Source of the DNA: Octopus sinensis
Lineage: Eukaryota
Assembly (NCBI RefSeq): GCF_006345805.1
Contig: NC_042999.1
Span: forward strand, 58,094,001 to 58,158,000
DNA length: 64,000 nt
Reading direction: 5' to 3'
The position numbers and the translations under genes are program-made. The notes under the pieces were generated by a model. The model did not search any database. It saw nothing but the letters and a program-made list of their open reading frames with translations, and was not told the DNA's origin. Below are positions 39,046 to 57,957 of this stretch, piece by piece (within the stretch, counting starts at the first letter, position 1; each line of letters begins with the position of its first letter).

Positions 39046-41103
<2,058 letters not shown>

Positions 41104-41945
41104 CTAGCAGAATTGCCCGGCGTTGCTAGGGGCTGAATTGCTTGAAAGTACTGTTAATGATTGCACTGAATTATGATGATTATTCAGGCAAATATTGATA
41201 TAAGTTTACGGTGGGAGATAAGGACTTAACGATCAAATGTGTGCCATTGCATTGTTTTGGGGGAACCAAATTTCTGATGAGCATTATAGGGGCACCAACT
41301 TTAAGTTTGAGAAAGTGTGGTGGTAGTCCGGGGTGCTCAAAGGAATTGAGTACCTCTATTGGATAGTTGATGACGTCCTCTGGGTCAGGAGTTGTATCGA
41401 TAGACTGATATACATAGACTTCCCCAGGAATGAGTTTTAGCATTTCATCATAATATGGTGAACAGTTTTATTCCTCGGGGCCAGTATAGCCTTTTTGCCA
41501 ATCCAATCCATATTCTGATAATTAGCTTGTAGATCTGGGAACACTGCATCTCTGAGATCAGAAGGCGTCTTAACAATGGTACAAATGGAATCGATGGCAA
41601 TATTACCATTTTCATCCCCTGGTATTTTGCCTTTGCCAAGTGCAAGGAGGGTGTGAGGAAATGCTGCTGATGTGATATTACGTCGCATATGAGCACGCAT
41701 ATTGGTGTGAAGTTTGAGAGTTACATCCCTTTATTAAAAAAATATGCATTAAAATGGAAAAAATGATGGTAAATTATTTGTAAAATCATAGACTCATCGT
41801 AGACGCGCGCTAATACCCAGAAGGGCTCGATATGAATCACGACTATAAGATACCCGGTTTTGGTTAAACTGCATCGCAAAATGTGGGAGTAGTTAGGAAT
41901 CTAAATCGGAGTAGACAGACACACAACCTTTCTTTTATATATAAA
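41104..41945 (-). mobile_element. Internally deleted Helitron carrying a PIF1-like helicase fragment (frameshifted copy)
   Basis: AILAPRN, GLPPHFLKLKVGAPIMLIRNL...CNGT helicase motifs; 3' hairpin and CTAG at 41104. Confidence 0.9.
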
Positions 41946-43506: not shown

Positions 43507-44454
<948 letters not shown>

Positions 44455-50877: not shown

Positions 50878-52589
50878 TAATATTGGTGGAGGAGAGGAGG
50901 AATCGAAATATTGGAGAAGTGTGCACAGATGGATGTAATTTACCTAACAAAATAGTCTCTATGTAGTCACTCGACCTACTAGAAATAACAACAAAATCAC
51001 TTTCCAGTCATACTTGAAGATCAGAGACTTGAAATGTTCTGGATTGCTAGACAGTATATCAGTGAGAATTGAGATCTTGTAGGAAAGAAGTGTGTGCAGA
51101 TGGATAACGGTATGCTTGCACCTATTGATGTGGACAAGAAAGAGGCATAGGAAAGTTACTATGTGAGATTATTGAATCTAGAGAATGAATGGAACAAAGA
51201 GAGTATCCCTCATGTGAACCCAAAGGGATATTTGTATCGTACAATCTTTCTATCACTCGAAGAGAGAAATCTTTCATAGTCAACAGTGGTAACAGCTCTT
51301 TGAATTTCCTCCATCCTACTCTTATTCAAATTATCATACTCTCTGTGCATCCTCTCCTACTAACAGAGCATTTCAGGTATGACTGGAAAGTGATTTTGTT
51401 GTTATTTCTAGTGGGTCGAGTGACTACATAGAGACTATATTGTTAGTTAAATTTTATCCATCAGTGCACACTTGTCCAAAATCTCGATTCTCACTGATAC
51501 ATTGTCTAGCAATCCAGAACATTTCAAATTTCTGATCTTCATGCAGTAGGACTTTGGCAAACCTCTTCTTTTTTGCTTCTACCCCAGCTAGATAAACTTG
51601 ATGTCTAACCTCCTTTTAGCTTTCTGATATGATTCTTTGCTACTCCTAGTGGACATCAGTATGGAAGATAAAGCAATAAAAACTATGAAAACTGGCTCAA
51701 AATATCTGGTAAGGTTGGATATGGGCTAGTCACCTGCATAGTTAATCAGGTCATTCAGGAAGGTGTAATATCCAAAGACAAGCATAGCAGCATTATTGTT
51801 AGTAGCTACAAGGGTAAGAGTAATGCTTTAGATAGATACAATTATAGAGGCATAAAACTCCTGGATCAGGTGATAAAAATTATGGAGAGAGATATTAATT
51901 AGGAACAGAATTAGGCTAGGCAAAATGCAGTATGGCTTCGTCCAGAGAAGAAGCACTATCGATGCTTTTTTCATAGTTAGGCAACTGCAAGAGAAGTACT
52001 TAGCTAAGAATAAAACATTATATTTGGCAGTCATTGATTTAGAGAAAGCCTTTGAGAAAGTACCCTGCTGTGTGATATGGTGAGCTCTGAGGAGGCTAAG
52101 GATAGACAAGTAGTTGGTGGAAGCTGTACAGGCCATGTACAAAGATGCTGTTAGTAAGGTGAGAGTTAACCACCAGTGATGAGTTTGGTGTACAGGTAGG
52201 GGTTCATCAAGGTTCACTCCTCAGTCCCCTCCTTTTCATCATTGTCCTTTAGGCCATAACAGAAGAATTCAAGACTAGCAGTCCATGGGAACTACCAAAT
52301 GTTGATGGTCTTGCCTTCAAAGCAGATTCCATATTGTGGTGTCGGTGGAGAGGACGACAGATAGGGGAGGGCGGAAGTAGGGCTTGCAGGGCGCATGCGC
52401 GGCAGGAAGCGGTGAGGGACGATGCACGTGTGGCATCAACGAAGCGGCAGTTGGAGCTGAGACGAGGAAGCGACGAGACGCATTGACTTTGTTGAGAGAG
52501 ATCTGATCTTCGCTGAGTTTGGTAGATTAATCTTCGCCGAGGTAAGACCTAATTATATTTCCTTTCTCCTTTTCATCATTCACACCACA

Positions 52590-52601
52590 AGCTATTTCGG
52601 C
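52590..52601 (+). promoter_or_regulatory. Putative non-canonical primer-binding site complementary to tRNA-Phe nt 1-12
   Basis: AGCTATTTCGGC is the reverse complement of GCCGAAATAGCT and starts immediately after the 5' LTR. Confidence 0.65.
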
Positions 52602-52642
52602 ATATAAACAAAAACAATTCTCACACGGTTTTATAAATAAAA

Positions 52643-53404
52643 ATGATGATGAGTGCCCGTATTTCGCACGAAATTATAAAACCATTTTGCAGTGACACGG
52701 ATGTAGTCGCTTGGCTGAAGAAAGTGAAGTTGGTGGCGAAGCTCCATGGTATAAGTGACCTGGCGAGCTTCATGCCGCTGTACTTGGATGGTCCAGTGTT
52801 GGCGTTGTATTTAGAGATGGAAGAGACAGACCAACTTAGCGCGGAGAAAGTGGAAGTCCTATTGATGGAGGCCTTTGCAGAGGGAATGTTCGAGGCATAC
52901 GCTCGCCTGGGTAGAACAAGATGGACTGGGCAACAAGTGGACGTGTTTGCCAATGAACTTAGGAGATTGGCTAAACTGGCGGGTTACGAGGGAGAGTCGC
53001 TGGACCGGACAGTTAGGTTGGCGTTCGTGACTGGCTTTCCCGACAACATGTCGGTCGAGCTACAGCAGCTTCCGAATGTGCATTCGATGCCGATGGTGGA
53101 CATCATATCTCGGGCACGCGTACTAGTTTCATGCAGCAGGATGACGTCGGTAGCAGCGACTGCAACATCGAAAAGTAGCCCAGCTAGGAGCAGCGGAGAG
53201 GGGCTAAAGAAAGAACATGTGCGACCGTTCAAAGGACAGTGTTTCCGGTGCCAAGGTTCACACATGGTGCGTGACTGTGTGTCACCCAAGCCTGAGGTGA
53301 TTTGCTACCAGTGTCGAGAGCCGGGGCATATAGCCAGTGAGTGTCTTCGGGGAAATGGACTGCGGGAGACTACTGCACCGGTAGTTGTCCCTTCGAATCA
53401 GTAG
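52643..53404 (+). CDS. gag: Gag of the LTR element
   Basis: 253-aa open frame with two CCHC knuckles (CFRCQGSHMVRDC, CYQCREPGHIASEC). Confidence 0.9.
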   Translation: MMMSARISHEIIKPFCSDTDVVAWLKKVKLVAKLHGISDLASFMPLYLDGPVLALYLEMEETDQLSAEKVEVLLMEAFAEGMFEAYARLGRTRWTGQQVDVFANELRRLAKLAGYEGESLDRTVRLAFVTGFPDNMSVELQQLPNVHSMPMVDIISRARVLVSCSRMTSVAATATSKSSPARSSGEGLKKEHVRPFKGQCFRCQGSHMVRDCVSPKPEVICYQCREPGHIASECLRGNGLRETTAPVVVPSNQ

Positions 53405-56245
53405 AGGTGCGCTTATCGTCACTACCTGTGGTCGACATTCTGGTGGAGGGGAAGATGTTGCGAGCCCTGTGGACACGGGCTGTACAACAACCCTGATGAC
53501 TACAGAAGTGGCAGAGACGTGGAGTGGAGGAAGCAGTGTTAGAGCTGTCGACGGAAGAGAAGTACACTGCGAAGGGGTTACAGATGCACGGATTGTGGTG
53601 CAGGGACTACAGCTGACGCTGCGAGCGATTGTGGTTGGTCACTTGGTGGATGAGTTCGACGTGGTGATGGGGATGGATGCAATCACCCACTTGGGAGGTG
53701 TCACCGTTAACGAGGCTGGTGTAACATTTGGTTGAGCGGGGAAACCGTGTAGGGCGAGACCATGCACCGGCGACAACTGTGAGGAAAAGCATGCTGCGCA
53801 CACCATTGAAGACCAGGATTTTCGGGCTGTCTTTGATGGCAAGAGGTGGACAGTGGAGTGGCACTGGAAGTAAGAGCCCCCGATGTTAAAGAATAAAGTG
53901 GGCTGCTATCAGCATACTCTAAAAGGAGATGCCAGAAGTGAGTTCGAGGGGGAGGTGGAGCGGTGGATTAAGGAGGCCATATTGATCCTTGGGAAAAAGA
54001 AGAGAGCGGAGTCCTGCCACAGATGGCGGTGATACAGCCCACAAAGCATAAGGTCAGGCCAGTGCTTGACTTCCGAGAGCTGAATGACCATGTATCGTGT
54101 CATACAGGCGGCGAGGCCACGGATGTCTGTGGAGACACCTTGCGAGAGTGGAGGCAGATGACAGGGGCCTCCACGATTGTTGATTTGAAGTTGGCATACC
54201 TACAGGTGCATGTGGCTGAGAAATTGTGGAAGTACCAGCTCGTCAGGTATAAGGGCTGGACGTACTGTCTGATCAGGTTGGGGTTCGGGCTGAATTCAGC
54301 GCCAAAGATTATGGCAACAATTCTCAAGGCCATCCTGGGAAAGGTGGACAGAGTAAAAAGGACCACCAATTTGTATATCGATGACATTCTGGTGGATGAA
54401 ACCGTAATACCAGCAATGGAGGTCATAGGCCACCTGAAGAGGTTTGGACTGATCGCCAAGCCACCAGAGGCAATGGAGGGAGGTGCTGCACTGGGCCTCA
54501 AGCTATGGAGAGACAAGGCCGGCGCATTGGTGTTCCGGCGAGGGAATGAGGTCCCTGAACTGGGCGCCAGCATGAGTAGACGGGAGCTGTTCTCTGTGTG
54601 TGGGAAGCTGGTGGGACACTACCCAATTGCAGGTTGGCTCCGGACAGCATGTAGCTTCATCAAGAGACGAGCCGAAGGAGTGAAGTGGAATGATAGAGTG
54701 GGGGAGAAGACGATCGACATGATGCAGGAAGTCTTGGTCAGTGTAGGAGCAGAGGACCCAGTGAGGGGCAGCTCGTATATTCCCAAATCAAAGAGCGGGA
54801 TTGTATGGTGTGACACCAGTAGCATCGCAACAGGGGTTGTCTTAGAAGTGGGAGGCGTCATGGTGGAAGATGCAGCCTGGCCCAGGAAGACGAATGACTG
54901 CAATCATATCAATGTGGCGGAGTTGGATGCCGTGTCGAAGGGGGTGAACCTCGCCTTGAAGTGGTGGTTGCACACCATAGAAATCAGGACTGATTTGGCC
55001 ACTGTACTTGGTTGGGTGACAGCAGTCATCACCAATGAGCGAAGGGTGCGGACCAAAGGGGCTGCAGAGATGCTGGTAAAGCGTCGATTGGGAATACTGA
55101 GTGAACTAACCACTGAGTTCAATCTGAAGCTGAACGTGATCTTTGTGCCTTCCAAGAAGAACAGGGCAGACGTCCTGACCAGAGTAAAGCGAGCCTGGTT
55201 GCAGGTGCCAGAGGATGCGAAGCAGGCTGTAGCTGCAGTATGCCGTCTGAGTGACTCGGAGTTGCGGAGACTGCATACCATGAATCACATGGGTGTGGAC
55301 AGGACATTGTTCCTAGCCAGAAAAGTTGACTCCGATGTAACAAGACAGCGTGCAGAGAGTGGTTAGCAGTTGTGACAGGTGCCAGTCCATCGACCCTGCT
55401 CCGGGCGTACATGAAGTGGGAAGTATTCCAGTGGACCATGACTGGAAACGACTGGCGGTGGACGTAACACACTACCGGCATGGGACATACCTCTCAATGG
55501 TTGACTGCGGACTGGGGTGGTTGGCCATATGGAGGGAGATGAAGACGGGGACCGCAGAAGAAATTGTGGAAGTGTTGAATGAGATATACCTGGAACGAGG
55601 CCCCGTGGATGAACTGCAGTGGATAATGGCACTGCATTTCGCTCGGATGTGCTGAAAGAAATGCTTGATGGGTGGAAGGTCAACCGCTCCTTCAGGGCGG
55701 CATACCGGCCAAGTGGAAATGGGGTGGTGGAAAGGCATCATCGTACCATCAAGGCCATGGCAGAGAGGGGTCACATTTCACCAATCGAGGCTGTATCTTG
55801 GTACAATATGCCACCCAGATCAGGACAGGCTGAGGAGTCGGTGTCACACAGGGCAATATTCAGGTACGAGTGGAGGCATCCGTGTACTGCATTAATGCGA
55901 CCTGGGGCAGAGGAAGAGCACGCCTTCGTGCAGGTCGGGGAAGAAGTTTGGGTAAAACCCCCAAATGCATGGTGTATATCACAATGGGGAAAGGGGACAA
56001 TAACCTCTGTAAATTCAAAGAATAACATCTCGGTCAATGGTATGCCACGCCACGTTTTGGATATACGGAGGATTGTCTATGCCTCAGAGGATGGGACCAG
56101 CAGCAGTGGGCAAGATGAAAACAACACCAGTAGACGGGATGAAGAGGCCAGCAGCAACATACCAGGAACCAGTCCTAGGTTCGCACTGCGACCACAGAGG
56201 GAACGGCACCCTCCTCCCTGGTTGGCTGATTATGAAACCAGTTAA
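53385..56245 (+). pseudogene. pol: Pol (protease, RT, RNase H, integrase), disrupted by stops and frameshifts
   Basis: VDTG protease; LDFRELN, GFGLNSAP, YIDD for RT; WCDTSS, HINVAEL, RTD for RNase H; HHCC plus VDVTH, MDNG, ERHHRT for integrase. Confidence 0.9.
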
Positions 56246-57957
56246 GGTGCGAGTTTGGGAGCGGGGAGCGAGTGAGAAAGCCGGTTCAGTGATCTGTAGA
56301 TCAGGGGGGGGGCGTGTGGTGTCAGTGGAGAGGACGACAGATAGGGGAGGGTGGAAGTAGGGCTTGCAGAGCGCATGTGCGGCAGGAAGCGGAAGCTGTG
56401 AGGGATGACGCTCATGTGGCATCAACGAAGCAGCAGTTGGAGCTGAGACAAGGAAGCGACGAGACGCATTGACTTTGTTGAGAGAGATCTGATCTTCACT
56501 GAGTTTGGTAGACTAATCTTCGCCGAGGTAAGACCTAATTATATTTCCTTTCTCCTTTTCTGTTGTCCTCTTCATCATTCACACCACACATATCAGAGCT
56601 AGAAGAGAAATTCCAGGTGCGGAAGCAAAACCTGGATTCTAAGGTTAACTCAGTAAAGACTAAGGTCCTAGTAAGCAAGAAAACAGATAGGACCCTACCT
56701 ACTTCAGGTAGGTGACCCTGTTTGATTTGCATGGTGTACCCAGTCTAAGCTATTGACACACAAGAGGTGCAATGGATTAATAGTGAGGTTATCAGAGAAG
56801 GTAGTGTTTGTATGTGGAAGATGTACAGGATCCATAAAAACTATTGAGACTCAGGAAATTGATTCTTTGAAATGCTCTGTTAGGAGGAGAGGATGCACAG
56901 AGAGTATGATAATTTGAATAAGAGTAGGATGGAGGAAATTCAGAGAGCTGTTACCACTGTTGACTATGAAAGGTTTCTCTCTCCAGGTGATAGAAAGATT
57001 GTATGATACAGGTACATGGATAGTAATTCTACATGGTAGTGAGACATGGGCCCTGAATGCAGAGGACATGTGATGGTTAGAGAGGAATTAGGCTAGTATG
57101 CTGTACTGGATGTATCATGTAAGCGTACATGTTCAGCAGAATGCTAGTGTATTGAGAGAGAAATTAAACATAAGAGGATTAGTCATGTGATGTGGAGGGA
57201 TGCTGACAGTTCTATAAAGAAGTGCTGATCTCTCAAAATGGGAGACCCCAGGAAGACATGGGACAAAGTACTGTAGAACGACCCCAGGACATTGAACCTT
57301 TCAGGCAATATGACAAAGGATCGAGATGCCTAGCACCTGGCTTCACTCAAGAAGGCCCATACTCTGCAGCAAAATTGTTAAGACCAGTCTCCCTAGTGGT
57401 GAAGATTGACCTGCAAGGGTCCTGAACTGGTGCCACGTAAAAAGCACTTGTAGTGGTGCCTTGTAAGATCGCCTGTGCAGGACCACATAAAAGTACCTGT
57501 GTGGTGCCATGTAAAAGCACCCAGCGCACTTTGTAAAGTGGTTGGCATTATGTAGGGCAGCTTGCTGTAGAAACCATCCCAGACAGGAGCCTGGTGCAGC
57601 TCTTCAATTTGGTAGCTTTGGTCGAACTGTCCATGGACGAATGTCAAATGAGGATGATGATGTACATCATCCTCATTTAACATGTACATCATCATCATCA
57701 TCATCGTTTAACGTCCGCTTTCCATGCTAGCATGGGTTGGATGATTTTGACTGAGCGCTGGCGAACCAGATGGTTGCACCAGGCTCCGATCTTGATTTGG
57801 CAGAGTTTCTACAGCTGGATGCCCTTCCTAACGCCAACCACTCCGAGAATGTAGTGGATGCTTTTTATGTGCAATCGGCACGGGGGCCACTCAGGCAGTA
57901 CTGGCAATGACCTCGCTCGAATCTTTTTACACATGCCACCAGCGCAGGTGCCAGTAA

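Follow-up and report, generated by a model that had tools for sequence, protein, structure and literature searches.

A conserved site complementary to the 5' end of tRNA-Phe adjoins the 5' LTR of an Octopus sinensis retrotransposon

Structure of the element and its match to tRNA-Phe

The window, a stretch of 64,000 nucleotides of Octopus sinensis DNA, contains an LTR retrotransposon at 52335-56588 (Table 1), which has the set of features that defines such elements, namely two TG..CA LTRs, a target duplication, gag, pol, and a polypurine tract (PPT). Both LTRs run from TGT to ACA, both end in ACCACA, and the two ungapped blocks in which they align, 170 and 78 nt long, show ~95% identity, while the 5-bp duplication CATAT is present on each side. 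The pol of the window copy is split into several reading-frame pieces, and the gag and pol ORFs overlap in other copies of the element. Young families, with LTR identities of 97–100% and long open pol frames, are represented by four loci (L066, L076, L077, and L080). Immediately 5' of the PPT lies a near-palindrome, GATC-N4-GATC (56291-56302), which is perfect in L077 and L080, is partly retained in several relatives, and is possibly a dimerisation or PPT signal. Read by eye, the flanking DNA at 51750-52329 and 56594-56700 appears to be the two parts of one decayed non-LTR reverse-transcriptase fragment, within which the element would lie.

Table 1. Features of the LTR retrotransposon in the window
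Feature	Position	Strand	Basis
Left target-site duplication CATAT	52330..52334	.	Sequence
5' LTR, TGT...ACA, 255 nt	52335..52589	+	LTR-LTR alignment
Predicted primer-binding site AGCTATTTCGGC	52590..52601	+	Exact complement of host tRNA-Phe(GAA) nt 1-12; abuts LTR; conserved
gag ORF, two zinc-knuckle-like motifs, one matching zf-CCHC	52643..53404	+	Pfam zf-CCHC, E=3.6e-5
GGGAAAT, predicted -1 frameshift heptamer near gag/pol overlap	53350..53356	+	Sequence; function inferred
pol: protease - RT - DUF7047 - RNase H - integrase	53385..56245	+	ORFs, Pfam; order via unbroken family member
Polypurine tract AGGGGGGGGGCG, G-rich, abutting 3' LTR	56303..56314	+	Similar tracts in other families
3' LTR, TGT...ACA, 274 nt	56315..56588	+	LTR-LTR alignment
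Right target-site duplication CATAT	56589..56593	.	Sequence

The 12-nt sequence AGCTATTTCGGC adjoins the terminal CA of the 5' LTR with zero spacer. A preliminary description had placed the LTR end at 52589 and had read the letters that follow as the complement of the start of tRNA-Phe instead of a TGG site. This placement is borne out by the alignment with the 3' LTR and by the CATAT duplication, and the exact pairing of the 12 nt with nt 1–12 of tRNA-Phe(GAA), proposed in that description, was found in the host itself: of the 524 genomic matches of AGCTATTTCGGC, the first 30 include two tRNA-Phe(GAA) genes (L009 and L024, called by ARAGORN), both of which start with its exact reverse complement. 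The limits of the pairing are G1 and U12, with tRNA nt 13–15 unpaired with the LTR end, and the energy of the site/tRNA duplex is -18.7 kcal/mol. In a host tRNA set of 37 distinct sequences, which comprises 12–13 isotypes only, the best perfect match of the site is 12 nt long, to nt 1–12 of tRNA-Phe, and the next best is 8 nt long. One tRNA copy that was called Ile(gat) shares the start of tRNA-Phe and is read as Phe-derived. In the duplex, the paired end at tRNA nt 12 faces the LTR, which is the direction required for minus-strand synthesis.

Genome-wide, AGCTATTTCGGC is not enriched, with 524 matches in 2.7 Gb versus 2247 for the backwards control. Because the control is commoner, the raw genomic count is not usable as evidence, and it is the conservation of the site, not the count of the 12-mer, that carries the evidence. 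A resemblance arising by chance, or a partner that is the 3' end of another small RNA, would suit a 12-mer that is common in a genome of this size and a motif that partly reflects features shared by many tRNAs. Nevertheless, this explanation is extremely unlikely, since three different sites, described below, match tRNAs of three isotypes exactly at 12/12 positions, all at nt 1–12, and Rfam gives no other match at the locus.

Conservation of the site within the genome

Two sets of loci, chosen without using the site, were compared, which overlap and both include the window copy. In the RT-anchored set, consisting of the best 30 of 150 listed loci, the site is exact in 25 and has one mismatch in 2, while the leader is absent in 3. 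In the gag-anchored set, consisting of 30 of 150 loci from each of two listings, the site is exact in 37/60, has one mismatch in 14 and two mismatches in 5, and is absent in 4; ACA directly precedes 53 of the 56 sites with up to two mismatches. CpG-type decay (C>T or G>A at CpG) accounts for 12 of the 24 site mismatches in the gag-anchored loci, and none of these 60 loci shows CA-TGG. The site is common to families that are 62–92% identical to the window copy in RT and have dissimilar LTRs, and where both LTRs of these other families align to their ends, the 5' LTR terminates exactly before the site. As a control, 10 conventional Gypsy elements of the same genome were inspected; TGG lies 0–2 nt after the LTR in 8 of them, and in the remaining 2 the LTR alignment stopped short. 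A normal TGG site or an unconserved sequence in other copies, either of which would have counted against the preliminary description, is thus not what the two anchored sets show: the other copies keep the site and have no TGG.

A role for the site in binding the tRNA for packaging, dimerisation, or regulation, with the true primer elsewhere, is unlikely. Such a role would be compatible with the sites described here, as priming at the site is predicted from sequence. However, the right end of the LTR needs a definer, and the site abuts that end without a spacer and in primer polarity, whereas no TGG site is found there in the 60 own-genome loci or in the 43 leaders of relatives described below. 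Inspection by eye did not consistently reveal a second site near the PPT that would pair with a tRNA.

Self-priming as in Tf1, whether through the 5' end of the element itself or through a splice junction within its LTR, is very unlikely. The LTR of the window copy has a 9-bp partial complement of the site (with G.U pairs) ~54 nt upstream, beside a splice-donor-like motif, which is in favor of such priming. However, the best duplex between the site and the upstream LTR beats dinucleotide shuffles (p<=0.05) in 2/48 elements, as chance predicts, and none of 47 elements has 11 consecutive pairs from the LTR edge, either contiguous or across the GT-AG splices tested, the best run being 10 and the usual run 4–6. 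Both tests used the LTR sequence in place of a mapped transcript start, and in neither was the LTR of the element, spliced or unspliced, a better partner for the site than the tRNA, an outcome that would have counted against the preliminary description. In addition, the site remains constant while the LTRs diverge.

At 52542-52591, the splice-donor-like GTAAGA is followed by a pyrimidine-rich tract and then by AG, with which the primer site begins and which is a possible acceptor; splicing of this putative intron would remove U5 and destroy the primer site. The donor-like motif occurs 38–83 nt upstream in 12/15 own-genome elements and is rare in the metagenome relatives. No LTR splice joint was listed in the contigs of four sequencing runs that cover most of a young copy, which is no evidence either way.

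Distant relatives and in-register switching of the tRNA isotype

Protein searches yielded 859 and 489 relatives among ~8000 scored candidates each, and the relatives named at the protein level are from Argonauta, Petrolisthes, Oratosquilla, Aplysia, Hydra, and Macrosteles; of the named pol sequences, that of Argonauta hians lies closest in the tree. DNA scans yielded 70 relative loci (68 metagenome and 2 genome contigs), of which 43 have a visible leader and 27 do not. In 37 of the 43 leaders, the 12-nt site is seen in the same register and layout shortly 5' of gag, while the other 6 (L166, L176, L193, L195, L204, and L208) are aberrant or decayed; TGG is present in none of the 43. The relatives with the site are ~34–54% identical in pol, and among them the LTR end is fixed by a second LTR only for L151 and L157.

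Removal of the near-duplicates L142, L165, and L203 from the 37 leaves 34 distinct sites, which were partly selected by motif search and hence are not an unbiased sample. In these 34 sites, positions 2–4 and 10–12 are invariant, positions 1 and 5 are each the same in 33/34, and the variation is concentrated in the part facing tRNA nt 4–7; in terms of the tRNA, the sides of nt 1–3 and 9–11 are invariant, and those of nt 8 and 12 are the same in 33/34. Conservation drops to <=50% directly after site position 12. All 34 sites require A at tRNA nt 9. A methylated G9 of a tRNA blocks pairing, and an A at this position would avoid it. L186 and L203, which have near-identical flanks, differ by A/G within the site, as fits a G.U wobble.

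Several side observations were made on these loci. L150 and L151 each have one in-frame stop in pol, similarly placed in the two, for which shared decay, readthrough, and another genetic code are candidate causes. L207 and L208 lie on short contigs of bacterial metagenome-assembled genomes and are probably eukaryotic contamination. In viral contigs, the site-pattern scan gave 58 loci, and the protein scan of the viral contig collection found no relative. The ESM Atlas gave unnamed clusters at 0.93–0.94, which serve as a lead only.

The sites of the relatives are not confined to tRNA-Phe. The site of L179 is the exact complement of nt 1–12 of host tRNA-Lys(CTT), and that of L184 is the exact complement of nt 1–12 of host tRNA-Met(CAT), the LTR end being inferred in both from CA, not from a second LTR. 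The L184 site differs from the Phe site at 5/12 positions, including the position at the LTR edge, and when the genome was searched with its complement, 13 of the 15 loci examined (of 36 matches) were tRNA-Met(CAT) genes that start with it. Host tRNA-Met(CAT) genes (L393–L406) have introns of ~15–22 nt after the anticodon, and some host tRNA-Lys(TTT) genes also appear to contain introns. L152 and L177 have sites that correspond to bases 1–12 of the human primer tRNA-Lys3 (PMC3832253); among the host loci examined, no tRNA-Lys(TTT) with this type of start was found, and the host Lys genes there match at 11/12 positions.

Of 16 site variants, 15 pair best, within the host tRNA set, with the 5' end of a tRNA. 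The two commonest variants, which account for 19/34 sites, match host tRNAs at only 10/12 positions; the sites of the metagenome relatives were compared with the tRNAs of this genome, which may differ from those of their own hosts. Some protist tRNA-Phe genes have starts that match these two variants, and the phage-contig tRNAs whose starts match them are tRNA-Thr in 21/27 and tRNA-Phe in 4/27 cases.

In a quick tree of 50 rows, which omits L186, L194, L195, and L204 for low coverage and for which a careful search is unfinished, L177, L179, and L176 group together (support 91), L184 lies beside a Phe-like element (98), and L152 lies elsewhere. These separate places indicate that the tRNA was switched more than once. 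As the switches to Lys and Met are in register, the rule followed by the site is 'tRNA nt 1–12', not 'tRNA-Phe', which reaches further than the preliminary description. This in-register isotype switching provides the strongest evidence for pairing with the tRNA 5' end, and the reading of the preliminary description, priming by the 5' end of tRNA-Phe, is supported to the extent that sequence comparison can support it.

Predicted priming and relation to known elements

With the position and polarity of the site, its exact 12-nt complementarity, its conservation, and the isotype switching established here, the primer is likely to be tRNA nt 1–12, cut between nt 12 and 13. In the putative pathway, the site, which abuts the terminal CA of the LTR and exactly complements these nucleotides, would receive the tRNA 5' strand after Gag zinc knuckles have opened the acceptor and D stems, leaving nt 13–76 as an unpaired flap. 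Cleavage at the edge of the duplex, possibly by the element's own RT/RNase H, would then provide the 3'-OH of nt 12, which, given the polarity, RT would extend directly into the LTR, so that the cDNA end would be the LTR end. Plus-strand copying would finally run off at G1, which would fix the length of the site at 12 nt. Nucleotides 1–12 are base-paired in the folded tRNA, so that access to them requires unfolding, which counts against this model.

The element's own RT/RNase H is slightly favored over a host nuclease for the cut, because three tRNAs share the edge at nt 12 and because the RNase H of Tf1 cuts Tf1 RNA between bases 11 and 12, giving an 11-bp primer duplex (PMC7175516). Alternatively, a host nuclease may produce a 5' tRNA fragment of 12 nt, or a longer one that is trimmed, which would be packaged ready-made; this possibility, which we hold only tentatively, involves the same primer and differs only in the cleavage step. 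Fragments from the 5' part of tRNAs form an established class (PMC7472051), and a free fragment would require no unfolding. However, Phe, Lys, and Met all have the edge at nt 12, within the D stem, consistent with the duplex determining the edge. In addition, the 5' tRNA fragments known to us exceed this length and extend as far as the D loop, which also counts against a host nuclease.

It is improbable that the tRNA remains whole and that the 2'-OH of its nt 12 primes DNA synthesis, in which case a branched RNA-DNA molecule would arise, as in retrons. This would also predict the edge at nt 12, with no cut required, and is indistinguishable in sequence from the cleavage of the tRNA. However, the base at nt 12 is variable, being U in Phe and Lys and G in Met, and to our knowledge no LTR element has been shown to prime from a 2'-OH.

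For the comparison with the Metaviridae (Ty3-Gypsy), the element shares with them the pol order PR-RT-RH-IN, the TG..CA LTRs, the 5-bp duplication, the PPT, and a related integrase. Profile scores against own-genome Gypsy elements reach 96 bits for the integrase and 40 bits for protease-RT, the similarity in RT being weak. Unlike Ty3-Gypsy, which is primed from the tRNA 3'-CCA end (PMC7879559), the element has no site complementary to a tRNA 3' end, whereas the Gypsy controls show TGG. DUF7047 and RVT_3 match 17/17 divergent pol proteins, while RT_RNaseH (Pfam) matches 0/17 at E<=0.01 and Peptidase_A17 matches 0/17. RT_RNaseH is diagnostic of the Gypsy-type RNase H, and a Peptidase_A17-type region is diagnostic of BEL-Pao, so that the feature of the Belpaoviridae is absent from these 17 proteins; in addition, neither of two own-genome BEL-type loci matched in the profile comparison at E<1e-3. 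A single-protein PDB search gave no useful match. Kinship to retroviruses was considered, as the best profile matches are retroviral integrases, and was rejected since the integrases of Gypsy elements reach equal or higher scores.

For Troyka, an LTR lineage of aquatic animals apart from Gypsy, the domain order and the short LTRs are the same as here, whereas its CG..CG ends and 3-bp duplications differ from TG..CA and 5 bp, its finger, CX2CX8-10HX4C, differs from the CX2CX3-4HX4C knuckles, and it has mostly one ORF, which is not so here; the available text of its description contains no discussion of the primer site (PMC12440569). Odin is described from sea anemones only, with primers unmentioned in the available text (PMC9040795). 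By eye, ~145 residues separate the YIDD motif from the start of RNase H, which is seemingly short for the Odin/lokiretrovirus tether. On these features, the clade is judged to be neither Troyka nor BEL.

In the half-tRNA priming of Ty1/copia elements (Hemivirus; Osser, Bryco, and Bianca), the tRNA is cut in the anticodon stem (PMC8515867, PMC6317226); a short tRNA segment as the primer is part of the hemivirus profile (PMC8515867), and among plant elements, half-tRNA priming is given for Ty1/copia only in the available text of the survey (PMC6317226). Like these lineages, the element would take its primer from a cut tRNA and not from the CCA end. In contrast to the Pseudoviridae and Hemivirus, in which the integrase precedes RT and the anticodon arm of a half tRNA is the partner of the site, the integrase is last in pol here, the site pairs with nt 1–12, and the predicted cut is in the D stem. 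As in Tf1/sushi, the 5'-terminal 11–12 nt of an RNA pair beside the LTR, with a cut at the duplex edge that is shown for Tf1 and predicted here (PMC7175516, PMC6317226). Unlike Tf1 of S. pombe, which uses the 5' end of its own mRNA, the element would use a host tRNA, and the tests of its LTR gave no self-complement. Priming here would therefore work like a hybrid of the Tf1 and half-tRNA modes while belonging to neither.

A 2019 survey lists three primer types, namely the complete tRNA, the half tRNA cut in the anticodon stem, and the self-primer (PMC6317226). Published primer-site searches, as far as their available text describes, test tRNA 3' ends only, for example the last 12 nt (PMC13524379), so that elements of the present type would score as having no primer site. 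The preliminary description knew of no account of this mode, and searches of the open literature likewise turned up none for primer sites that pair with tRNA nt 1–12, although the families may sit in Repbase, Dfam, or GyDB under Gypsy names; the available portions of PMC13524379, PMC7472051, PMC3587641, PMC8220671, and PMC6934838 hold no relevant description of such priming. The tRNA 5'-end site is, as far as the comparisons above reach, a real and conserved feature, and the predicted variant of tRNA-fragment priming was not found described.

LTR elements are defined in part by the way in which their reverse transcription starts, and a primer from the tRNA 5' end, if kept throughout a diverse clade, would add a fourth type. 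Very short 5' tRNA pieces would then gain a definite role, and RNA-RNA cleavage by a retroelement RNase H could be tested by simple biochemistry. An unrecognised LTR lineage of superfamily level, spanning molluscs, crustaceans, insects, and cnidarians and probably also non-animal eukaryotes, which throughout uses this fourth mode by capturing the 5' strand of a tRNA and cutting it after nt 12 with its own RNase H, is conceivable, and we put it forward with considerable reserve. If this is true, it would represent the chemistry of Tf1 in trans and would link tRNA priming with self-priming.

Elsewhere in the window, the regions 40000-41450 and 44004-44452 contain a long AT/AC microsatellite and a 449-nt inverted repeat that is 96% complementary.
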